Below are positions 693 to 61,284 of a stretch of DNA of 64,000 bases, piece by piece; position 1 is the first letter of the stretch; every line of letters begins with the position of its first letter. Below the pieces are notes generated by a model. That model was not told the DNA's origin, made no database searches, and saw only the letters and a list, made by a program, of their open reading frames with translations. A program made the position numbers and the translations under genes. The stretch is taken from positions 20,191 through 84,190 of the forward strand of contig CBDBNA010000012.1 of assembly GCA_965207695.1 (NCBI GenBank), given 5' to 3'. The stretch is from Dehalococcoidia bacterium (GTDB taxonomy: Bacteria > Chloroflexota > Dehalococcoidia > Bin125).

Positions 693-3590
693 ATGCCGCT
701 GCCGGTCCTCCGCCGCGCGCTCGTCGTGGGCGTCGCGCTGCTGGCGCTGGCCGCAGGGATGTGGGCATCGCACGGGACTGCGTCGGCGCAGGCGCCGGCG
801 GCCAGCACGATCACGACGGAGCTCCAACCCGGTTGGAATCTCGTGGGCTGGATGGGCTCCGACACCACCACCCGGGCGCTCTTCGACGCCCTGCCGGAGT
901 TGAACCTCATCGTCGCCTGGGACGATGAGGCGCAGCGGCACCGCTGGGCGTGGCGCCCGGCGGTCGGGTCGCGGGGGCTGCGGGGCGTCAGCCGGGGCCA
1001 AGGGCTGGCCCTGCACATCGGGGGCGAGGCCGCCGTCGAGTGGACGCGCCCGGTGGCGGAGGGCGTCGTGCTGCTCCCGCTGCGTGCGGGAAACAACCTC
1101 GTGACCTGGGGCGGACCCGACGGAACGCCGATCGAGGAGGCGCTCGACTGGCTGGGCGACGCCGTCATGAGCACGTCGCGGTGGAACGCGGGCATGCGGG
1201 AGAGCGAGCGCTACCGCCCCGGTGCATCCACCGCCGCCAACACGCTGCGCACGCTGAATCACGGCGACGCGTTGTGGGTGCGGCTATCGGAGGATGCGAG
1301 TTGGTGGCAGTCGGGCACGGCGGGCACGGAGTTCGTTTTCGAGGAACCGCTGCATCCGGAGACAGAGGCGGCGCTGCGTGCGGAAGTCGCCAGCGTGCTG
1401 GCGTTCTACTACGAGAGTTATGGGCTGGAGCCGGTCGATCTCTCGGTAGCTACTTATCCACGCCTCGACTTCAGCGCCAGTGCGTGGGCAGGGGAGATCA
1501 ACATCAGCAAGCGGAGGTACAGCAACCCACTGCCGGATTTCGCCATCCCACACGAGTACTTCCATGTCTTGCAATTCGAGTGGGCGAAGCTCTCGCCGAA
1601 CCAATTCGAGACGCCGAACTGGCTGATCGAAGGCACGGCCACGTACATGGAGGGTCTGTACTACGAGCAACGACTTGGCGAGACGGGGGCCGATGTGCGC
1701 GCGGATTGGTGGCGGCGCACGATCGGGCGCGGCGTAGGATCCCTACCGCTGGACCACTGGGTCTACGACCACGGGCAACAGGGAGATCAGCGAATCACCG
1801 CAGGGTACTTCGTGGGCGCGTTGGCGACGGACTGGCTGGTCAGGCGAGCGGCGGCATTGTCCGCGGGGACGCGCTTCGATCCGCTGGAGCCGCCGGAAGT
1901 GGTTACCCGGCCGGACTATAACGCCCACTTCGAGTTCTTCCGCCTGCTGCCGATGTCGGGAACCTGGGAGGAGGCGTTCGAGGCGGCCTTCGGCATCGGG
2001 GTCGAAGACTTCTACGAGGTGTTCGAGGAGTATCGGATCGCGCTGGGCGCGCAGTACCTGCCGCACTTGGCCGACGACCGCGATGAGCCGAAGCTCGTGC
2101 TACTGGGCGAGATTCCGTCCGACGTCCAGACCCGCCTCCGCGACCAGTTCGACACAGCCCAGGAACTCTTCGGCGACAGGTTCAGGAGCGGGCCGGTGGA
2201 CTACACGGTCTACGTTGCAGCCAACGACCGGTCGGCGGAGCCCACGTACCAGCACGTCTTCGGGTCCGCGTCCTTCTGGTTGGGGGAAGACATCTCCCCC
2301 ATCGCACAATGCAGCAGGAGCACTACAGGATTCACCTTATTCGTGGTCCTGGCGAACTGCCCAGCGGAGCCGATCGGAGACCTACTCGGGGAGTATCACT
2401 TCGAGGAGGTTCTGGAGCGGGTCGCGCCGACGGATGTGCTCACGCCGTTGCTGCCGGGATACAACTCTCCCGGTCCCTACTGGTTGCGGCTGGCAACGCG
2501 CGGCTACGCCGAGCATGCGTATCGGGAAGTGCTGGGAATCGAGACACTCGATGAAGCTCGCCGCACGCAAGCGGAGATCGCGGCCCGGACGGCGGCGTCG
2601 CTGCGCAGCGTCACGGCATATCCACCCGTGCCGGAGGCTCCGGACGAGGCGACTGCCGCCCTCAGTTTCCTGGCAGGCGACTGGTTGGTGACGCGGGCCG
2701 GGGAACCGGCGATCTTCGAGTACTACCGGCTGCTGGGGTCCAACGACAGTTGGCAGGCGGCGTTCGAGCGCGCGTTCGGGATCACGATCGACGACTTCTA
2801 CGAGGAGTTCGCGGCGTACCGGGCCGTGGCGGCGCCGGCGCGGCCGCCCGAGGAGCGCGACGCGCCAGAACTCGTGCTGCTGAGTGAGATCCCCGCCTGG
2901 GACGCAGCCAGAGTGCGTGCGTACTTCGAGGCCACGCAGGCGTTCTTCGGCGATCGTCTTGGTGGCGAGCCGGTCGACTACGCGGTGTACGTCGTGGCCA
3001 GCGGCCCCGAGGCGGCAGCGCACCAGGACATCATTGATGTGATCCCGCCCGGGGCGTGCTTTTTTGCACAGCGTCCCTGGACCACGGCGGTCATAGTGCT
3101 ACGACGCTGCATCCTATCCCCCGTGGACATCCTGGGACAGTTCCACTTCGCCAGCGTGCTGCGGCAGTTGACGCCTCCGGGCGCCTGGGAGTACTGGCCC
3201 TCCGATTACAAGCTGCAGGGGTCCTACTGGCTTGACGTCGGGCTGCGTCGATACGCCGATCGCGCCTTCCTCGATTCGCTGGAGCTTGAGGATCTCGACC
3301 GGAGTCGCCGCCGATCGGCGAATTTCGCGATCTGGGCGGAGGGCACGCTGTACGACCTTGAGCCCTACCGGGATTCGGGTCGGTCTCCTGATCACGAGAC
3401 CGAGGCGCTGAGCTTCCTGGCGGCCGACTGGCTGGTGGCGCGAGCCGGGGAGCGGGCGATCTTCGACTACTACCGCTTGCGCCAGTCCGCCGCCAACTGG
3501 CAGGACGCCTTCGAGGGCGCCTTCGGCATCACCATCGACGACTTCTACGCGGCGTTCGCGGAGTACCGCGCCGCCGGCTTCGAGCGCTGA
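693..3590 (+). CDS. secreted repeat protein (signal peptide, three ~280-aa internal repeats, one HExxH motif)
   Basis: 965-aa ORF. The N-terminal hydrophobic signal (LVVGVALLALAAGMWASHGTASA) suggests secretion. A ~280-aa module is repeated three times, ending in FEYYRLL..WQAAFE.AFGI.IDDFYE.F..YRA. The first module contains IPHEYFHVLQFEW, a possible Zn-metallopeptidase HExxH. Codon usage is consistent with the rest of the window. Confidence 0.6.
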   Translation: MPLPVLRRALVVGVALLALAAGMWASHGTASAQAPAASTITTELQPGWNLVGWMGSDTTTRALFDALPELNLIVAWDDEAQRHRWAWRPAVGSRGLRGVSRGQGLALHIGGEAAVEWTRPVAEGVVLLPLRAGNNLVTWGGPDGTPIEEALDWLGDAVMSTSRWNAGMRESERYRPGASTAANTLRTLNHGDALWVRLSEDASWWQSGTAGTEFVFEEPLHPETEAALRAEVASVLAFYYESYGLEPVDLSVATYPRLDFSASAWAGEINISKRRYSNPLPDFAIPHEYFHVLQFEWAKLSPNQFETPNWLIEGTATYMEGLYYEQRLGETGADVRADWWRRTIGRGVGSLPLDHWVYDHGQQGDQRITAGYFVGALATDWLVRRAAALSAGTRFDPLEPPEVVTRPDYNAHFEFFRLLPMSGTWEEAFEAAFGIGVEDFYEVFEEYRIALGAQYLPHLADDRDEPKLVLLGEIPSDVQTRLRDQFDTAQELFGDRFRSGPVDYTVYVAANDRSAEPTYQHVFGSASFWLGEDISPIAQCSRSTTGFTLFVVLANCPAEPIGDLLGEYHFEEVLERVAPTDVLTPLLPGYNSPGPYWLRLATRGYAEHAYREVLGIETLDEARRTQAEIAARTAASLRSVTAYPPVPEAPDEATAALSFLAGDWLVTRAGEPAIFEYYRLLGSNDSWQAAFERAFGITIDDFYEEFAAYRAVAAPARPPEERDAPELVLLSEIPAWDAARVRAYFEATQAFFGDRLGGEPVDYAVYVVASGPEAAAHQDIIDVIPPGACFFAQRPWTTAVIVLRRCILSPVDILGQFHFASVLRQLTPPGAWEYWPSDYKLQGSYWLDVGLRRYADRAFLDSLELEDLDRSRRRSANFAIWAEGTLYDLEPYRDSGRSPDHETEALSFLAADWLVARAGERAIFDYYRLRQSAANWQDAFEGAFGITIDDFYAAFAEYRAAGFER

Positions 3591-3605
3591 CCGGGGCGCG
3601 ACACC

Positions 3606-4286
3606 ATGCCCACCGACGCGCCACCGGGCGGCTGGCCCGACGAGTCGCCGTTCGTAGCGGCGCACTTCCGCTGCGACGACGAGCGGGACGACGCCCTCTT
3701 CTACCAGGAACCCCGCCTGGTGACGCACATCGACGACGCGGCGATCGCGGCGCTGCGGGCGCACTACGCGCGCATCTTCCCGGCCCGCGCGGCGGTGGTC
3801 GACCTGATGAGCAGCCACGTGTCGCACTTCCCGGCCGGCTTCGCGCCGTCGCGGGCGGCCGGGCTGGGGATGAACGCCGAGGAACTCGCGGCGAACCCGG
3901 CGCTGACGGAGTGGGTCGTGCACGACCTGAACACCGATCCGGCGCTGCCCTACGACAGCGCGGGCTTCGACGTGGTCACGATCGCGGTGAGCGTGCAGTA
4001 CCTGCGGCAGCCCGTCGCGGTCTTCCGCGAGATCGGCCGGGTGCTGAAGCCGGGCGGCATCTGCAGCGTCGCGTTCTCGAACCGCTGCTTCCCGCCGAAG
4101 GTGGTCGCGCTCTGGTCGGCGACGGGCGACAGGGGGCACGCGCAGGTCGTGACCGCGTACTTCCACTACGCGGGCGGGTTCGGCGAGGCGGAGACGCTGG
4201 ACCTGTCGCCCGATCCACGGCGCAGCGACCCCCTCTACGTCGTGCAGGCGCGACGGCTGGGCGGGGAGCGCGTCAGCGGCCCGTGA
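3606..4286 (+). CDS. class I SAM-dependent methyltransferase-like protein (type-11 domain, divergent motif I)
   Basis: 226 aa. The region FDVVTIAVSVQYLRQPVAVFREIGRVLKPGGICSVAF matches methyltransferase motif post-I/II/III. Motif I is atypical (VVDLMSS instead of a GxGxG stretch). Confidence 0.5.
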   Translation: MPTDAPPGGWPDESPFVAAHFRCDDERDDALFYQEPRLVTHIDDAAIAALRAHYARIFPARAAVVDLMSSHVSHFPAGFAPSRAAGLGMNAEELAANPALTEWVVHDLNTDPALPYDSAGFDVVTIAVSVQYLRQPVAVFREIGRVLKPGGICSVAFSNRCFPPKVVALWSATGDRGHAQVVTAYFHYAGGFGEAETLDLSPDPRRSDPLYVVQARRLGGERVSGP

Positions 4287-9528: not shown

Positions 9529-11217
9529 ATGCCCAGCGACGCCCCATCCGACGAGTCCGACGCGCCCGACCCCTGGGACGTGATCGTCGTGGGGGGCGGG
9601 CCGGGTGGCGCCGCGGCGGCCACGCTGCTGGCGCGGCAGGGATGGCGGGTGCTCTGCTGCGAGCGCGAGCGCTTCCCCCGGCCGCACGTGGGCGAATCGC
9701 TGCTGCCGGCGTCGCTGCCGATCCTCGACGCGCTCGGCGTGCTGGAGGCGGTCGAGCGTGAGGGCTTCGTCGAAAAGCCCGGCGCGACGATGGTCTGGGG
9801 CCGCGACACGGCCCCGTGGTCGTGGTATTTCCGCGAGACGAATCGGACACACTCGCACTCGTACCAGGTCTGGCGCCCCCGCTTCGATCAACTGCTGCTC
9901 GACAACGCGCGCGCCGCCGGCGTCGAGGTGCGGGAGGGCTGCCGCGTCGCGGAAGTGCTCTTCGACGGCGAGCGGGCGATCGGCGTCCGCATCGCCGGAG
10001 AAGCAGCCGGCAGCGCGGAGGAGCGGGCGCGCTTCGTCGTGGACGCCAGCGGGCAGGCGGGGTTGATCGCCCGCGCGCGGTCGTTGCGCCGCTACGACGA
10101 CGCCTTCCGCAACCTGGCCGTCTACGCCTACCACGAGGGCGCCGCCCACCTGCCGCCCCCCGACGCGGGCAACATCTTCATCGAGTCCACGCGCGACGGC
10201 TGGTGCTGGACGATCCCGCTGGGCGGCGGGCGCAACAGCGTGGGCGCCGTCGTCGACAGCGCGCGGGGGCAGCGCGGCATCGCCGAGTTGGGGACGGAGG
10301 GCTTCTACGAGGCGCAACTGGCCCTGGCCCCGCGCACGACGGCGCTGCTGGCCGGGGCGAGGCGCGTCGACGGGCCGCACGTCGCGCGCGACTGGTCGTA
10401 CGTCGCCGGGCGGCTGACCGGGGAGGCCCACGTGCTCGTGGGCGACGCCGCCTGCTTCGTCGATCCGCTGTTCTCGTCGGGCGTGCACCTGGCGCTGTCG
10501 TCGGCGGTGCTCGCGGCGGCCTACGTGACGACCTCGCTGCGCCGCCCCGAGATGGGCGCGGCCGCCGCGGCCGTCTATGCCGAGCTCTACCTCCAGCAGT
10601 ACGGGCACTTCCGGGAGCTGGCGCGCCTGTTCTACGCCAGCAACCGCTCCGTCGAGTCGTACTTCTGGGAGGCGCGCCGCATCGTGGGTGACGATGCGAG
10701 CACGCCCCGCGAGGCCTTCGTGCGGGCGGTGGCCGGGCAGCCCCCGCAGGGCTACGAGCGGGTCGTGCTGGAGCGCGGCGACGCCCCGGCCGACTTCGCC
10801 GGCGACGTGCACGCGCTGGAGTCGGAGCGGGCGGCGCGCCGCCGCGCCTGGGACGCGGCGCTGTCGGGCGGGCATCCGCCGGCGGCGCTGCTGGCGGCGA
10901 TCGCCCGGCCGACGGCCGGCGTGCGAGTGGAACGCAAGCCGGTGCTGGAGGGCGGCGAGTTCCTCTGGGGCGACGTGCTGGTCAGCGGCAGCCGCCCGGA
11001 AGGAACCCCGATCAGCCCCCTGGTCGCCCGGCTGCTGGCGGCGCTGGACGGACGGCGCAGCGTGGCCGGGGCGCTGGAGGACGTCGTTGCGGAGTTCCCC
11101 GCCGATCGGGCCGGACGGATGGGCGCGCCGCTGCTCACGACGCTGGGCATCCTCTACGTCGACGGCGTGATCGACGGGCTCGACGCGGCGCTCGGAGTCT
11201 CGTGCGAGGGTAACTGA
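9529..11217 (+). CDS. flavin-dependent halogenase-like FAD-binding protein (tryptophan-halogenase family)
   Basis: 562 aa. Contains an N-terminal GxGxxG (VVGGGPGGAAAA), HVGESLLP (the G-x-G-E-x-x-x-P halogenase motif) and GWCWTIPL, matching the W-x-W-x-I-P signature that distinguishes halogenases from FAD monooxygenases. Confidence 0.7.
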   Translation: MPSDAPSDESDAPDPWDVIVVGGGPGGAAAATLLARQGWRVLCCERERFPRPHVGESLLPASLPILDALGVLEAVEREGFVEKPGATMVWGRDTAPWSWYFRETNRTHSHSYQVWRPRFDQLLLDNARAAGVEVREGCRVAEVLFDGERAIGVRIAGEAAGSAEERARFVVDASGQAGLIARARSLRRYDDAFRNLAVYAYHEGAAHLPPPDAGNIFIESTRDGWCWTIPLGGGRNSVGAVVDSARGQRGIAELGTEGFYEAQLALAPRTTALLAGARRVDGPHVARDWSYVAGRLTGEAHVLVGDAACFVDPLFSSGVHLALSSAVLAAAYVTTSLRRPEMGAAAAAVYAELYLQQYGHFRELARLFYASNRSVESYFWEARRIVGDDASTPREAFVRAVAGQPPQGYERVVLERGDAPADFAGDVHALESERAARRRAWDAALSGGHPPAALLAAIARPTAGVRVERKPVLEGGEFLWGDVLVSGSRPEGTPISPLVARLLAALDGRRSVAGALEDVVAEFPADRAGRMGAPLLTTLGILYVDGVIDGLDAALGVSCEGN

Positions 11218-11280: not shown

Positions 11281-12360
11281 ATGCGAGCCGCCGTCTACAA
11301 CGGACCACACGAGGAGCAGGTCTTCGAGGAACTCGATATCGCGGATCCGATTGGGTACGAGGTGCTCGTGCGCACGGCGGCCGCCGGGGTCTGCCACTCC
11401 GACCTGAAATTCGTCGATGGGCTCATGCCGCTGGAGGCTCCGGCGGTCCTGGGGCACGAGTCGGCGGGCGTCGTGGAGGCGGTGGGGCCGAACGTGACCG
11501 AAGTCGCGCCGGGCGATCACGTCATCGCTTGCCTGTCGGTCTTCTGCGGGCGCTGCGACCGCTGTCTGACCGGCGAGACGTACCTCTGCATGAAGCCACC
11601 GTCGCGCTCGCCCGAGGAGCCGCCGCGACTCTCGCTGAACGGGGAGCCGGTGGCGCAGTTCGTGAACGTCGGCGGGTTCGCGGAGCAGATGCTTCTGCAC
11701 GAGAGTGGGGTCGTGCGGATCGACACGGACGTGCCGTTCGACGCGGCGGCGCTGATCGGCTGCGGCGTGACGACGGGGATGGGCGCAGCCCTGAACACGG
11801 CCCGCGTCTCGCCCGGCTCGACGGTCGCGGTATACGGCGCGGGCGGCGTCGGCCTCTCGGCGATGCAGGGGGCGCGCATCGCGGGGGCGCGGATGATCAT
11901 CGCCGTGGACGTCGAGGAGCACAAGCTGCGCACGGCGCGCGATCTGGGCGCCACGCACGGCATCGACGCCTCGGCGGGGGATCCGGTGGAGCAGATCCGC
12001 GATCTGACGGGCGGCCAGGGCGTGGACTACTCGTTCGAGGCGATCGGGCTCAAGCGCACGCTGCAGCAGGCCTGCGACTCGATCCGCAACGGCGGCATGA
12101 CGACCGCGATCGGGGGGATCGAGCTCGACCAGAAACTCGAGATCTCGGCCGAGTGGTTGTTCCAGCGGACGCTGGTGGGCTCCGCGCTGGGCTCGAACCA
12201 CTTCAAGACCGACACGCCGAAGTACATCGAGTTCTACCGGCAGGGGCGGTTGAAGCTGGACGAGATGGTGACCAGGCGCGGCCGGCTCGAGGATCTGAAC
12301 GACGCGCTCGAGTCGATCCGGCAGCGGGAGGTCGCACGGACCGTCCTCATGTTCGACTGA
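11281..12360 (+). CDS. Zn-dependent alcohol dehydrogenase (MDR family), paralog 1
   Basis: 359 aa with GVCHSDLKF (catalytic Zn), a C-x-x-C-x-x-C-x7-C structural Zn motif (CGRCDRCLTGETYLC) and GAGGVGL (NAD binding). Confidence 0.9.
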   Translation: MRAAVYNGPHEEQVFEELDIADPIGYEVLVRTAAAGVCHSDLKFVDGLMPLEAPAVLGHESAGVVEAVGPNVTEVAPGDHVIACLSVFCGRCDRCLTGETYLCMKPPSRSPEEPPRLSLNGEPVAQFVNVGGFAEQMLLHESGVVRIDTDVPFDAAALIGCGVTTGMGAALNTARVSPGSTVAVYGAGGVGLSAMQGARIAGARMIIAVDVEEHKLRTARDLGATHGIDASAGDPVEQIRDLTGGQGVDYSFEAIGLKRTLQQACDSIRNGGMTTAIGGIELDQKLEISAEWLFQRTLVGSALGSNHFKTDTPKYIEFYRQGRLKLDEMVTRRGRLEDLNDALESIRQREVARTVLMFD

Positions 12361-12461: not shown

Positions 12462-13541
12462 ATGCGAGCCGCCGTCTACCACGCACCACACGAGGAGCAG
12501 GTCTTCCAAGAGGTCGACGTCGCGGAGCCGATTGGGCGCGAGGTGCTCGTGCGCACCGTGGCCAGCGGCGTCTGCCACTCCGACCTGCACTTCGTCGATG
12601 GACTCTGGCCCATCGAGGGTCCGGCGATCCTGGGACACGAGTCGGCCGGCATCGTTGAGGCCGTGGGGCCGCACGTGACCGAGGTCGAGCCGGGCGATCA
12701 CGTCATCGCCTGTCTGTCGGTCTTCTGCGGCCGCTGCGACCGCTGTCTGACCGGCGAGACGTACATCTGCGAGAGCCGCCCGACGCGATCGCCCGAGGAG
12801 CCGCCGCGCCTCTCGCTGGACGGCAAGCCGGTGGCGCAGTTCGCGGAGGTCGGCGGCTACGCGGAGCAGATGCTCCTGCACGAAAGCGGCGTGGTGCCGA
12901 TCGACAAGGACGTGCCGTTCGACATCGCGGCGCTGATCGGCTGCGGCGTGACGACGGGGGTGGGCGCGGCCCTCAACACGGCCCGCGTGAAGCCGGGCTC
13001 GACGGTCGCCGTGTACGGCGCGGGCGGCGTGGGCCTCTCGGTGATCCAGGGCGCGCGCATCGCGGGGGCGCGGATGATCATCGCCGTGGACGTCGAGGAG
13101 CACAAGCTGCGTACGGCGCGCGACCTGGGCGCCACGCACAGCGTCGACGCCACGGCGGGCGACCCGGTCGAGCAGATCCGCGATCTGACGGGCGGTGGGG
13201 GCGTGGACTTCTCGTTCGAGGCGATCGGGCTCAAGCGCACGGTCGAGCAGGCCTTCCAGTCGATCCGTAACGGCGGCATGACGACGTCGATCGGGATGGT
13301 CCCGCTGGGCGAGAAGCTCGAGATTCCCGCCGAGTGGATCTACCAGCGGACGCTGGTGGGCTCCGCGCTGGGCTCGAACCACTTCAAGGTCGACATGCCG
13401 AACTACATCGAGTTCTACCGCCAGGGCCGGCTGAAGCTGGACGAGATGGTGACCAAGCGCGGCCGGTTGGAGGACCTGAACGACGCCTTCGAGTCGATCC
13501 GGCAGCGCGAGGTCTCGCGAACCGTCCTGATGTTCGACTGA
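12462..13541 (+). CDS. Zn-dependent alcohol dehydrogenase (MDR family), paralog 2 (tandem duplicate)
   Basis: 359 aa, about 85% identical to the upstream paralog, with the same motifs. The ~60-nt leader is also duplicated. Confidence 0.9.
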   Translation: MRAAVYHAPHEEQVFQEVDVAEPIGREVLVRTVASGVCHSDLHFVDGLWPIEGPAILGHESAGIVEAVGPHVTEVEPGDHVIACLSVFCGRCDRCLTGETYICESRPTRSPEEPPRLSLDGKPVAQFAEVGGYAEQMLLHESGVVPIDKDVPFDIAALIGCGVTTGVGAALNTARVKPGSTVAVYGAGGVGLSVIQGARIAGARMIIAVDVEEHKLRTARDLGATHSVDATAGDPVEQIRDLTGGGGVDFSFEAIGLKRTVEQAFQSIRNGGMTTSIGMVPLGEKLEIPAEWIYQRTLVGSALGSNHFKVDMPNYIEFYRQGRLKLDEMVTKRGRLEDLNDAFESIRQREVSRTVLMFD

Positions 13542-13589: not shown

Positions 13590-14060
13590 CTAGCGCTCCG
13601 TCACCTCCGCCGAGCACGTGACGTCGATCGCGTCCTTGACGCTCTCGTGCGCCGGGCAGGCCGCCGGGTGCACGCGCAGCGCCCGATCGAACGCCTCACG
13701 CTGCCCGGCCGGGATGGACGCGTGGTAGGTCACGTGGATCTTCGTGATGCGGATGGTGTCGTTGCCCGTCCCCTCGATGGTTCCCTCGACGTCGGCGGTG
13801 TAGCTGGACCGGTCGAACTCGACCTTGCGGGCGCTCAGCGCACGCGCGAGCGTGCCGTACATTCAACCGCCCACCGCCGCCACGATGTGGTCCAGCGTCG
13901 CGGCGATGGGCGGGCCCTCTCCGACGCCGTAGTACTCGCGCAGGGCGCCCTGCACGCCGTAGGGCACCGGCTCCGGCACCTCGCCCAGGTAGGCGTGCCG
14001 CAGGCCGCCCTGGAACTCCAGGCGGGTCTTGCTGATGTAGGTGAAGCCGTCGTCCGGCAT
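13590..14060 (-). CDS. OsmC/Ohr-family peroxiredoxin with in-frame TGA at the catalytic Cys position (candidate selenoprotein; alternatively pseudogene)
   Basis: Track ORFs 13863..14060 and 13590..13862 are in the same frame, separated only by TGA (13863-13865, minus strand). The joined product ..PYGVQGALREYYGVGEGPPIAATLDHIVAAVGG[TGA]MYGTLARAL.. ..RVHPAACPAHESVKDAIDV aligns with E. coli OsmC (..[34 protein letters not shown].. ..KAKAGCPVSQVLKAEITL). The TGA sits exactly where the peroxidatic Cys belongs and the second Cys-Pro is intact. Confidence 0.6.
13832..13852 (-). other. candidate bacterial SECIS-like hairpin downstream of the in-frame UGA
   Basis: The mRNA reads UGA-AUGUACGGCA-CGCUCGCG[CGUG]CGC(U)GAGCG: an 8-bp GC stem with one bulged U and an apical loop CGUG. 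The loop lies 19-22 nt after UGA, within the 16-37 nt window described for bSECIS elements. Confidence 0.35.
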
Positions 14061-14094
14061 GGCACGCTCCCTTCCCGGGAATCCGACCCGCAGG

Positions 14095-14478
14095 CTAGCG
14101 CAGCGGCGCCACGCGGCGGCTGCGGAAGCGCCACTCTTCGCCGACGCTGACCAGGTCGTCCTCGTAGGCGAGCAGCCAGATGTCGGTGCGCCCCTCGACC
14201 GGCACCTGGAAGCTGAGGAAGCAGCGGTGGCGGACGCCGTCGGCCGTGCGCTCGAAGAGGTGGTTGTCGGTGAAGTGCATCGCGCCGGGGAACTGCTCGG
14301 CGAGTTGATCGCAGAAGGCCACGAGCGCGTCGCGCCCCTCGGCGTGGCCGGCGGGGCCGTCGAAGACGCCGTCGGCCGTGAAGGTGTCGGCCCAGGCCTC
14401 CGAGGCGCCGGTATCGATCGCGTAGTTGTAGCGGGCGCAGAGATCGAGGATGGCGAGGCGGTCGTCGGTCGAGATCAT
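14095..14478 (-). CDS. SnoaL-like / NTF2-like domain protein
   Basis: The probable start is the internal Met (MISTDDRLAILDLCARYNYAIDTG..). The pattern DRLAI.DL..RY..A.D, typical of SnoaL-like polyketide cyclase / DUF4440 folds, is present. Confidence 0.6.
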   Translation of the reverse strand: MISTDDRLAILDLCARYNYAIDTGASEAWADTFTADGVFDGPAGHAEGRDALVAFCDQLAEQFPGAMHFTDNHLFERTADGVRHRCFLSFQVPVEGRTDIWLLAYEDDLVSVGEEWRFRSRRVAPLR

Positions 14479-14518
14479 GGGTCGCTGCGCTCTCCCGGCC
14501 GCGGTGCGGCTCCGCCGG

Positions 14519-15607
14519 CTACTCAAGCGTCTCGATGTGCTCCCGCCGCAGGCGCTCCCAGTCGATCTCGTAGCCGAGGCCGGGCTCGGTGGGGGCGTGC
14601 ACGACGCCGCCGGTCATGTCGATCTCCTCGGCGAGGCCGTACTGCATGTCGCCGGTGCAGGGGAAGAACTCGAAGAACTCGCAGTTGGGGACGGCCATCG
14701 TGACGTGCAGGTTGGCGACGTTGTTGAGCGAGTTGCCGCCGTGGTGGATCTCGCACTTCATGTTGAAGCCCTCGGCCAGGTGGCAGAGCCGTACCGTGGG
14801 CGTGATGCCGCCGGTCACCGCGACGTCGCCGCGCAGGTAGTCGGTGGCCTGTTGCGTGATCCACTGCGCCATACCGTAGAACCGGCCGGGCGCGTTCTCC
14901 GTCGACATGATGGGGATGTCTAGCTTCTGGTGCAGCTTGACGTAGTTGTAGACGTCCTCCGCGACGAGTGGATCCTCGTACCAGTAGAAGCCCAGATCCT
15001 CGATGGCGCGGCCGACGCGCAGCGCGTCCTCGTACTGGTAGGACCACATGGAGTCGAGCATCAGGATCATGTCGTCGCCGACGGCCTCCCGCACGGCGGC
15101 GCAGATCTCGACGTCGGCGCGGGGCTCGGTGTGGGGGTGGATCTTGTGGGCGATCCAGCCGGCGTCGCGGAAGCGCAGCGCCTCCTCCTGGTACTCCTCG
15201 GGGGTCTCCCAGTAGGCCGTGCTGGAGTAGGCGGGCACCGACTCCTTGCAGGTCCCCAGCAGCCGGTGGATGGGCTGGCCGGCGATCTTGCCGTTGATGT
15301 CCCACAGGCAGATATCGATGGCGCCCATGACGGACGTGTGCAGCGAGTAGCTCATCTTCCAGAGGTCGCGCCAGATCGCGCCGATGTCCTGGGGGTCGCG
15401 GCCCATGACCGTGGGCTTGGCGTAGGCGATCAGGCTGCGGGCGTGGTACTGGGGCCGGCTGAGGAACGCGTGACCGCTGATCCCCTCGTCGGTTGAGACG
15501 GTGACCACGCCGAGTTGGTCGTTCCCTCCGAAGCGTCTGCCGGCCCCGACCTGCCAAGCATCGACCGGCCAGTTCACGACCTGCACGGTGACGTTCGTGA
15601 TCCGCAC
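14519..15607 (-). CDS. mandelate racemase/muconate lactonizing enzyme (enolase superfamily) protein
   Basis: 362 aa with an MR/MLE N-terminal capping domain and a TIM barrel carrying metal ligands (..ICLWDINGK.., ..MLDSMWSY.., ..YWYEDP..). Confidence 0.8.
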   Translation of the reverse strand: MRITNVTVQVVNWPVDAWQVGAGRRFGGNDQLGVVTVSTDEGISGHAFLSRPQYHARSLIAYAKPTVMGRDPQDIGAIWRDLWKMSYSLHTSVMGAIDICLWDINGKIAGQPIHRLLGTCKESVPAYSSTAYWETPEEYQEEALRFRDAGWIAHKIHPHTEPRADVEICAAVREAVGDDMILMLDSMWSYQYEDALRVGRAIEDLGFYWYEDPLVAEDVYNYVKLHQKLDIPIMSTENAPGRFYGMAQWITQQATDYLRGDVAVTGGITPTVRLCHLAEGFNMKCEIHHGGNSLNNVANLHVTMAVPNCEFFEFFPCTGDMQYGLAEEIDMTGGVVHAPTEPGLGYEIDWERLRREHIETLE

Positions 15608-59338: not shown

Positions 59339-59971
59339 CTACTTCGGCGCAGCCGTCGTGCGCAGGTAGGGCCGGTGGGTCGTGAAGCCGGCCGGGAACA
59401 GCTCCTTCGCCTCGTCATCGGGGACGGTCGGCAGGATCACGACGTCCTCGCCCTGCTGCCAGTCGGCCGGCGTCGCCACCTTGCGGTAGGTGGTGAGCTG
59501 CAGGGAGTCGATGACGCGCAGGATCTCCGCGAAGTTGCGGCCCGCCGAGGGCGGGTAGGTCAGCGTCAGCCGCAGCTTCTTGCCCGGATCGACGATGAAG
59601 ACCGAGCGCACGGGCGTCTTGTCGTCCGAGTTGGGGTGGATCATGTCGTACATCTCGGCCACGCTGCGGTCGCCGTCGGCGATGATCGGGAAGTTCACCG
59701 TCGTGTTCTGGGTGTCGTTGATGTCCTTCACCCACTCGCTGTGGCTCTCGATCGGGTCGACGCTCAGCCCCACGACCTTCACGTTGCGCTTCTCGAACTC
59801 CGGCTTCAGCTTCGCGACGGCCCCCAGCTCCGTCGTGCAGACGGGCGTGAAGTCGGCCGGGTGCGAGAAGAGGACGCCCCAACTCTCGCCCAGGAAGTCG
59901 TGGAAGCTGATCGATCCCTCCGTGGTCTGGGCCTGGAAGTCGGGCACGGTGTCGCCAAGTCGCAGTGTCAT
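59339..59971 (-). CDS. peroxiredoxin (1-Cys Prx6-type)
   Basis: The start is the internal Met (MTLRLGDTVPDFQAQTTEGSISFHDF..). The Prx active site HPADFTPVCTTE is present and there is no resolving Cys in the C-terminal region. Confidence 0.85.
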   Translation of the reverse strand: MTLRLGDTVPDFQAQTTEGSISFHDFLGESWGVLFSHPADFTPVCTTELGAVAKLKPEFEKRNVKVVGLSVDPIESHSEWVKDINDTQNTTVNFPIIADGDRSVAEMYDMIHPNSDDKTPVRSVFIVDPGKKLRLTLTYPPSAGRNFAEILRVIDSLQLTTYRKVATPADWQQGEDVVILPTVPDDEAKELFPAGFTTHRPYLRTTAAPK

Positions 59972-60111
59972 GATGCTCTCCTCATCGCCGACGCCGGTCG
60001 CGCGCCGGATGCTGCGGGTCTTATGGTGCGATACTGGCAAACGGACGGCCGTTTGCCAACCGTTTGCCCTCCGCGCTGGGAGGCGGAGATAACAGGGAGA
60101 GGATCGCCGAC

Positions 60112-61284
60112 ATGCCACACCCCGTCGCCGCGCTGGACCGCCTCGGCACCGAGACCGCCTTCGAGGTGCTGGCGCGCGCGCAGCAACTCAGCGCCCAGGG
60201 CCGCGACATCATCAACCTGGGCATCGGCCAGCCCGACTTCCGCACGCCGGCGCACATCGTCGAGGCGGCGAAGCAGGCGCTCGACGACGGCCACCACGGC
60301 TACACGCCCGCCGCCGGCCTGCCGGCCCTGCGCGAGGCGGTGGCGCAGGACCTGACGTCGCGGCACGAGGCCGAGGTCGACCCCGGGTCGGTGCTGATCA
60401 CGCCGGGAGCGAAGCCGATCATGTACTTCGCGATCCTGCTGTTCGGCGAGCCGGGGGCGGAGATCATGTACCCGAACCCCGGCTTCCCGATCTACGAGTC
60501 GGTGATCGCCTACTCCGGCGCGACGCCGGTCCCCATCGAGTTGCACGAGAGCGCGGGCTTCTCCTTCGACGCCGAGCAGGTGCTGGCCAGCGTGACGGAC
60601 CGCACGCGGCTGTTGATCCTCAACAGCCCGGCCAACCCCACCGGCGGCGTGGTGCCGGCGGAGCAGATCGAGAGGCTGCTCGACGGGCTGGCCGCCTTCC
60701 CCGACGTGACGATCCTCAGCGACGAGATCTACAGCCGCATCCTCTACGGCGAGCGCACGCACGTGAGCCTGCTGCGCTATCCCGAGATCCGCGACCGCCT
60801 GATCGTGATCGACGGCTGGAGCAAGACCTACGCCATGACCGGCTGGCGGCTGGGCTACGGCATCTGGCCGGCGAACCTGTTCCCGCACGCCGAGCGGCTG
60901 GCGGTGAACTCCTACTCCTGCCCCAGCGCCGTCGCGCAGCACGCGGGGCTGGCGGCGCTGCAGGGCCCGCAGGACGCCGTCGGGGAGATGCGGCAGGCCT
61001 TCGACGAGCGGCGCCGGATCATCGTGGCCGGGCTCAATTCGCTGCCGGGCATCCGCTGCGCCGACCCGGGCGGCGCGTTCTACGTCTTCCCCAACATCGA
61101 GGGGACGGGCATGGACGCGGGCGCCCTGCAGCGGCGGCTGATGGAGGAGGCGGGCGTCGCCGTCGTGGCGGGGACGAGCTTCGGGCGGCTGGGCGAGGGC
61201 TACCTGCGCTTCTCCTACGCCAACAGCGCCGAGAACATCCGCGCCGCCATCGAGCGCATCCGGAGCCTGCTGGGCGCGGAGTAG
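60112..61284 (+). CDS. PLP-dependent aminotransferase, class I (aspartate/aromatic aminotransferase family)
   Basis: 390 aa with NLGIGQPDF, a Schiff-base Lys in DGWSKTYAMTGWRLGY, and NSPANPTG. Confidence 0.85.
   Translation: MPHPVAALDRLGTETAFEVLARAQQLSAQGRDIINLGIGQPDFRTPAHIVEAAKQALDDGHHGYTPAAGLPALREAVAQDLTSRHEAEVDPGSVLITPGAKPIMYFAILLFGEPGAEIMYPNPGFPIYESVIAYSGATPVPIELHESAGFSFDAEQVLASVTDRTRLLILNSPANPTGGVVPAEQIERLLDGLAAFPDVTILSDEIYSRILYGERTHVSLLRYPEIRDRLIVIDGWSKTYAMTGWRLGYGIWPANLFPHAERLAVNSYSCPSAVAQHAGLAALQGPQDAVGEMRQAFDERRRIIVAGLNSLPGIRCADPGGAFYVFPNIEGTGMDAGALQRRLMEEAGVAVVAGTSFGRLGEGYLRFSYANSAENIRAAIERIRSLLGAE

Follow-up and report, generated by a model that had tools for sequence, protein, structure and literature searches.

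OsmC-like proteins have been listed as a selenoprotein family since the 2005 Sargasso Sea analysis by Zhang, Fomenko and Gladyshev (PMC1088965), and the family recurs, with Pfam family PF02566 and the motif UxxT, in the Global Ocean Sampling (GOS) list of 2008 (PMC2398784) and in a review table of 2026 (PMC13188914). In addition, an NCBIfam model for an OsmC-related (seleno)protein exists. Here, we describe a candidate of this kind in a 64,000-nucleotide (nt) stretch of DNA from a Dehalococcoidia bacterium (contig CBDBNA010000012.1, positions 20,191 to 84,190), hereafter called the window. Based on our data, the region 14060-13590 on the minus strand is, with a probability of roughly 0.9, one intact gene for an OsmC-superfamily selenoprotein of 156 residues, in which an in-frame UGA is read as selenocysteine (Sec). 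An earlier note on this stretch, made from the letters alone, had proposed the same residue and had regarded Sec-containing OsmC proteins as rarely, if at all, reported; the latter does not hold in view of the three listings and the model just named.

The in-frame TGA and its conservation

The complete predicted selenoprotein gene (13590-14060, minus strand) comprises 156 sense codons with Sec at codon 66 and a TAG stop. In a single frame, the ATG at 14060-14058 opens a run of 65 codons, followed by the TGA at 13865-13863, which is the predicted Sec codon 66, by 90 further codons and by the TAG at 13592-13590, and the 90-codon open reading frame (ORF) itself begins with an ATG directly after the TGA. 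A Shine-Dalgarno region read from the sequence (GGGAAGGGAG, 14067-14076, minus strand) lies 6 nt 5' of the first ATG, with the core GGGAG at 14071-14067, and comparable Shine-Dalgarno sequences precede the start codons in other loci. The window has a GC content of about 71%, and besides the TGA at codon 66 the OsmC gene shows no disruption.

The joined product matches the Pfam OsmC family (PF02566) over residues 57-149 with 45.3 bits (cut-off 27.5, E=1.3e-11). Searching the PDB with the single sequence gave no match, whereas a profile of the family did match E. coli OsmC (1QWI), placing Cys59 of this protein (AAHAAC) in the TGA column and its Cys125 at the later Cys-Pro. The aligned residue in the window is Cys135, encoded by the TGC at 13656-13658 (minus strand) within an invariant C-P-A-H motif, and the columns of U66 and Cys135 are both invariant in the family alignment. 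In E. coli OsmC, Cys59 is the peroxidatic Cys and Cys125 the resolving one. The earlier note had described two same-frame minus-strand ORFs split only by the TGA at 13863-13865, a joined 156-residue product of the OsmC family, a stop exactly at the first conserved OsmC Cys (the peroxidatic one) and an intact second Cys-Pro, and all four descriptions were borne out. Its central proposal, a Sec replacing the catalytic Cys, likewise stands, since the TGA is invariant in 83 genes, both halves are under purifying selection, homologues carry Cys at the site and a hairpin compatible with a selenocysteine insertion sequence (SECIS) is conserved. The orthologues, which it had proposed to compare, all keep the TGA together with a coding downstream half, and the homologue with TGT at this codon retains the hairpin.

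Relatives were collected by a scan of one genome per species, in which 236 species genomes matched; 85 loci were fetched, corresponding to 83 distinct genes. TGA stands at this codon in 85/85 loci, flanked by conserved ...TLDHIVAAVGG and MYGT... segments. By record titles, the best 80 loci include 55 from Chloroflexota (mostly Dehalococcoidia), 18 from Methylomirabilota/Rokubacteria and a few whose titles give Bacillota or other phyla. Five independent public assemblies (L001-L005) encode a 90-residue product identical to that of the window, and all of them carry the identical 65 + 90 split; they include the Chloroflexi metagenome-assembled genome (MAG) GCA_009837595.1 from NCBI, and the record names ENGE20 and ROBB21 suggest sponge-microbiome datasets. 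As this split recurs on five independent assemblies, one of which (L001) differs from the window by synonymous changes nearby, the TGA is not a sequencing error. More generally, a pseudogene, a TGC-to-TGA point mutation or an error specific to the window might be considered, given that a single base separates TGA from TGC or TGT and that one close homologue carries TGT. This explanation is refuted by the comparative data and its remaining probability is negligible: the same TGA is found in all these assemblies and loci across at least two phyla, other disruptions are absent, and the third-position bias of coding sequence is seen in both halves. A damaged copy looks different, as illustrated by a 134-kb contig (L089:5900-6700) with CGA (Arg) at the Sec codon plus several frameshifts; this copy is a true pseudogene unless errors of assembly account for it.

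Across the UGA, the gene runs on without a break and its conservation is maintained. Per-site differences between pairs of sequences, taken by codon position (1/2/3), amount to 0.14/0.12/0.51 just upstream of the TGA and to 0.23/0.23/0.42 downstream of it; judged from these patterns, both halves evolve as coding sequence under purifying selection. A start codon is located 57-65 codons upstream of the TGA in every locus, and a Shine-Dalgarno sequence precedes it in those inspected. Internally, 83/83 distinct genes have TGA, whereas their terminal stops vary (TAG 41, TGA 28, TAA 14). These organisms thus use TGA as a normal stop, and the internal one is fixed and site-specific.

This difference between internal and true stops also bears on the possibility of a split gene, in which the UGA would be a genuine stop and the adjacent AUG a start, so that polypeptides of 65 and 90 residues, made by termination and reinitiation, would form a Sec-less OsmC-like protein. 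The codon after the UGA is indeed AUG in every locus, and gene callers everywhere predict exactly these 65- and 90-residue ORFs. We nevertheless regard a split gene, the sole structural alternative, as very unlikely, because i) it is precisely the catalytic Cys column that is interrupted, leaving a split product without its active-site residue, ii) a uniform TGA would not be expected next to the mixed true stops of the same genes, iii) 79/80 sequences have none of the motifs GGAG, GAGG or AGGA within 20 nt upstream of the junction, whereas the real starts inspected have clear Shine-Dalgarno sequences, and iv) the second ORF, if it were one, would have the most stable hairpin of the gene 15-35 nt past its start, although a region of initiation is expected to be free of structure. 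Furthermore, Met or Leu follows the Cys in uninterrupted Cys homologues, and the Met after the UGA is therefore a structural residue.

The interruption has left its mark on the databases. Among 5.8 billion proteins searched, the matches were almost exclusively fragments of about 90 residues beginning at the Met after the TGA, and this mass of fragments has the look of a selenoprotein that is systematically truncated. NCBI and JGI records name the two halves "hypothetical protein" and "OsmC family protein" (NCBI MXY79677.1). Some JGI calls (L090:428-952 and L091:353-877; P0002, P0021, P0022) render the Sec TGA as Trp, and the P0002 call also runs past the true TGA stop (...ADESV*RMAYID); evidently, TGA was translated with an alternative genetic code on these short contigs.

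Homologues with Cys at the site are found as well. The close homologue P0001, encoded on a 598-nt metagenome contig (L088), carries TGT at this codon and has kept the hairpin. An exhaustive profile search gave 629 relatives, many of whose matches are interrupted at profile positions 64 and 66, and among the more distant full-length homologues fetched, about 30 of 33 have Cys in the column, within the context TLD(H/Y)...C(M/L)xGT. The Sec form is fixed throughout the clade, with Cys only in more distant relatives and in one singleton, which suggests that selenium at the active site confers a real catalytic advantage.

An AlphaFold model of P0001 reached a predicted local distance difference test score (pLDDT) of 86.2 and a predicted template-modelling score (pTM) of 0.82. 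Comparing this model with the PDB by Foldseek, all six significant matches (E<=0.001) were OsmC/Ohr structures, with 1QWI as the best (E=2e-4), and nearly all of the 50 matches listed belonged to the same group. The template-modelling (TM) scores against OsmC/Ohr structures are only about 0.5, presumably since the model is a monomer, whereas the OsmC chains come from an intertwined dimer. On the strength of this model, the predicted fold of the subfamily is that of OsmC.

A stem-loop downstream of the UGA

Published criteria for a bacterial SECIS (bSECIS) comprise a loop of 3-9 nt, a stem of at least 4 base pairs (bp), a G in the first two loop positions, a distance of 16-37 nt from the UGA and a minimum free energy of -7.5 kcal/mol or lower (PMC13188914). 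Applied to every codon of the genes, these criteria were passed by 97.6% of the true sites versus 31% of other codons, and the median energy of the true sites was reached by only 4.6% of the background. Of all 30-nt segments of the gene, the one that immediately follows the UGA is the most stable (mean -14.6 versus about -7 kcal/mol elsewhere), and it is the gene-wide energy minimum in 45/83 genes. The hairpin is conserved in position: in 57/68 distinct sequences, the centre of its dominant form lies 28-31 nt from the U of the UGA, with stems of mostly 7-9 bp and predicted apical loops of which most start with G. It is also more stable than synonymous recodings of the same segment (mean z=-1.43 versus -0.47 to +0.09 at control segments), codon choice contributing about 4 kcal/mol beyond these recodings.

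Within the Rokubacteria-type clade, 99.1% of cells are paired versus 22-60% in slid controls, and pair 27-35 shows a compensatory swap, being C-G in 22 sequences and G-C in 8; this swap links a synonymous change of an Ala codon to an exchange of Ala and Gly three codons further on. It is the family comparison from which the above-chance signal comes, and on this comparison the hairpin is position-specific across the family.

Two overlapping structures can be drawn for the window. The minimum-free-energy hairpin (13828-13857, minus strand; -13.6 kcal/mol) corresponds to the hairpin of the earlier note plus three outer pairs; it has 8 bp, one bulged U (13837) and the loop CGUG (13841-13844) at RNA nt 22-25 after the U of the UGA, so that the loop begins 18 nt after the UGA and carries a G at its second position. 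The hairpin in the family-conserved register is located at 13827-13847 (minus strand; RNA nt 19-39 after the U of the UGA) and has the loop GCUGA (13835-13839). It contains one C.C mismatch, since the window has GCC where L001 and L006 (both 97% identical) have the synonymous GCG, and it reaches -9.3 kcal/mol, compared to -15.5 kcal/mol in L001 with a G-C pair at this place. With this loop, a spacing of 23 and -10.7 kcal/mol including flanks, the window passes the bSECIS criteria weakly. The main stem-loop is followed immediately by another, small hairpin, GGUCG-AGUU-CGACC (13811-13824, minus strand; RNA nt 42-55 after the U of the UGA), which lies in the codons for K-V-E-F-D and recurs in many Dehalococcoidia-type sequences.

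Selenocysteine as the probable inserted residue

From these comparisons we infer that Sec is the residue inserted and that the hairpin is read by SelB. The UGA at codon 66 would be recoded by a SelB-type elongation factor that, loaded with Sec-tRNA(Sec), binds the GC-rich bacterial SECIS stem-loop a few codons past the UGA and inserts Sec in place of termination. Sec66 would then occupy the OsmC/Ohr position of the peroxidatic Cys, with the resolving Cys135 of the C-P-A-H motif kept, and hydroperoxides would most likely be reduced via a selenenic acid and an Se-S bond with Cys135, followed by re-reduction by a thiol donor. By homology to its family, the reduction of hydroperoxides is the most likely function of the window protein.

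A number of observations weigh against this interpretation. The minimum-free-energy hairpin of the window does not stand out from dinucleotide shuffles (z=-0.16) or from synonymous recodings (z=-0.43), and an equally good SECIS-like hairpin follows about 16% of other codons in these genes. Taken alone, the hairpin of the window is indistinguishable from chance at the 70% GC of this sequence and among the weakest in the family. The 8-bp hairpin with the CGUG loop that the earlier note had put forward exists, but is not the family-conserved one and carries no signal of its own, and the SECIS geometry claimed for the window holds in a weak form that is shared by this 16% of the background. RNAalifold over all 80 distinct downstream segments found no single consensus, since clades differ by 2-3 nt in the register of the stem; after this result, clades were folded separately and position-independent tests were used. 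Runs of (GC)n also let structures slid by 2 nt pair well. As to protein models, the window protein scores 24.6 bits with NF041052, the OsmC-related (seleno)protein model, against a cut-off of 95, and Cys relatives score 16-27 bits. Finally, the decoding machinery was not detected within the DNA at hand: ARAGORN gave no tRNA gene on the window and no tRNA-Sec gene on 60 loci, Rfam found no family on the 64-kb window, and tblastn with E. coli SelA, SelB and SelD gave no selA, selB or selD in the window and all locus flanks, in agreement with what had been noted for the window before.

With these genes missing from the window and the locus flanks, the UGA might instead be read through with another residue and without selenium, i.e. 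as Cys by a tRNA-Sec-like tRNA(Cys), or as Trp or Gly by a suppressor or near-cognate tRNA. Mukai and co-workers are said to have proposed in 2017 that unusual tRNAs read UGA as Cys in some uncultured bacteria. We consider such a read-through improbable to a high degree. TGA is also the terminal stop in 28/83 of these genes, so that a general reassignment of TGA does not apply, and neither the conserved SECIS-type hairpin at the site nor the presence of recognised selenoprotein families with in-frame TGA on the same contigs of relatives would be expected. The lineages are furthermore rich in selenoproteins: Dehalococcoidia MAGs with 46-49 selenoprotein genes are among the selenoprotein-richest bacteria (PMC13326102), 63 such genes are predicted for a Methylomirabilota MAG (PMC13188914), and SelA and SelB co-occur in most bins of sponge symbionts (PMC5649159).

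The selenoprotein genes on contigs of relatives belong to several families. In L010, which is from the clade of the window, a UGSC family (seleno)protein gene (3381-3920, plus strand; NCBIfam NF041046, 114.8 bits, E=3e-33), whose in-frame TGA falls in D-U-G-S-C, precedes the OsmC-Sec gene (at 4001) by 80 nt, resulting in two selenoprotein genes in tandem. Seven loci have AhpC/TSA-type (Prx/BCP-like) genes with in-frame TGA in W-U-P-[YF]-C (UxxC) next to OsmC-Sec on the same contigs (L019:2852-3898, L032:501-1157 and L073:1265-2260, with partial copies in L035, L055, L060 and L083); the proteins of L019 and L073 carry a C-terminal extension of about 200 residues. Besides, a Clostridia contig encodes a PrdB-like homologue of reductase selenoprotein B with in-frame TGA in V-P-V-U-P-L-C (L028:719-1531), and a Methylomirabilia contig a ResA/TlpA-like thioredoxin-fold protein with in-frame TGA in F-W-T-Y-G-U-I-N-C (L076:1551-2075). 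On this indirect evidence, the Sec trait appears to be present in these lineages, several independent lines pointing the same way. Scans of the window for a second TGA-interrupted gene gave no convincing candidate; the triplet at 3588-3590 is an apparent normal stop with the next gene in frame.

One further scenario would combine Sec insertion and a split product. The UGA-AUG junction could be dual-purpose, yielding the Sec enzyme when selenium is available and, under selenium limitation, two fragments by termination and reinitiation that assemble into a Sec-less protein. If true, the gene would possess a built-in fallback and the family would be a natural switch between split and unsplit forms. 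We regard this as a speculative idea with very little probability, and a single Sec-containing product remains our preferred interpretation.

Genomic context and relation to described OsmC proteins

The OsmC gene is preceded by a gene for a SnoaL-like protein (14095-14526, minus strand), identified as an ORF and from the Pfam SnoaL_4 match in L002 and L003, where the genes are arranged identically; at a distance of 34 nt from the OsmC start, it is probably co-transcribed with the OsmC gene. Its start is overlapped by a gene of the enolase superfamily (MR_MLE; 14519-15607, minus strand; Pfam MR_MLE_N/C in L001-L003). Convergent with the OsmC gene are tandem paralogous genes for Zn-dependent alcohol dehydrogenases of 359 residues each (11281-12360 and 12462-13541, plus strand), and a flavin-monooxygenase/halogenase-like gene of 562 residues (9529-11217) is also located downstream, on the other strand from the OsmC gene; the Pfam families of the dehydrogenase and flavin-monooxygenase genes were taken from matching loci. 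These neighbours resemble the catabolic repertoire known from SAR202-type Chloroflexota. Clustering of neighbours revealed no partner gene conserved across the whole family and only clade-specific synteny.

Farther away, the window encodes an ordinary Cys-type peroxiredoxin with a ...FTPVCTTELG... motif (59339-60118, minus strand), which we take to be 1-Cys/Prx6-like; the genome therefore also has a non-selenium peroxidase. It adjoins an aminotransferase gene (60064-61284, plus strand), which is 46 kb from the OsmC gene and the N-terminal sequence of which appears to resemble that of the gene directly upstream of OsmC-Sec in 26 Dehalococcoidia-type loci. In another relative (L092:4001-4519, P0079), a glycine-cleavage H protein (lipoyl carrier, PF01597) is joined to an OsmC-like C-terminal half without the Sec region. 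This fusion ORF may have arisen by rearrangement; it might deserve attention because Ohr/OsmC enzymes are reduced by lipoylated proteins.

With respect to described proteins, E. coli OsmC (PDB 1QWI/1NYE) and Ohr, which are Cys-based, thiol-dependent hydroperoxide reductases, share the fold and both redox positions with the window protein, but identity is only about 17-19% and the peroxidatic Cys is replaced by the predicted Sec. The scores are below the cut-offs of the models of both groups, TIGR03562 for OsmC (24.4 versus a cut-off of 85.8 bits) and TIGR03561 for Ohr (12.9 versus 88.85 bits), and the Cys relatives as well remain under every OsmC-type NCBIfam cut-off. The best NCBIfam match is NF041052 (OsmC_like_Se), covering residues 56-151. 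Since the score lies below the cut-off of this model, NCBI annotates two fragments and no selenoprotein; with a model of its own for this subfamily, hundreds of records would be corrected and the selenoproteome counts for Dehalococcoidia and Methylomirabilota would rise.

The published OsmC-like selenoproteins, which came from marine and environmental bacteria (PMC1088965, PMC2398784, PMC13188914), are of a like kind, as they combine PF02566 with a UGA-encoded Sec at the N-terminal redox Cys position and a bacterial SECIS just downstream. By Pfam classification (PF02566 in the 2008 and 2026 tables), the window protein falls into this family. Comparing by description, it differs in the motif, which is UxxT in the published family (COG1765 in the 2005 paper) and U-M-Y-G-T, i.e. 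UxxxT with the Thr at +4 instead of +3, in the window protein, and it possesses, in addition, a stretch of about 55 conserved N-terminal residues (F-x-Y-I-S...Y-G-V-Q-G-x-L) outside the part matched by Pfam. This is no new kind of system, as the replacement of Cys by Sec at a redox site together with a downstream SECIS is the textbook pattern, and the window gene is best filed as an unrecognised subfamily of the known Sec-OsmC kind rather than as a member of NF041052.

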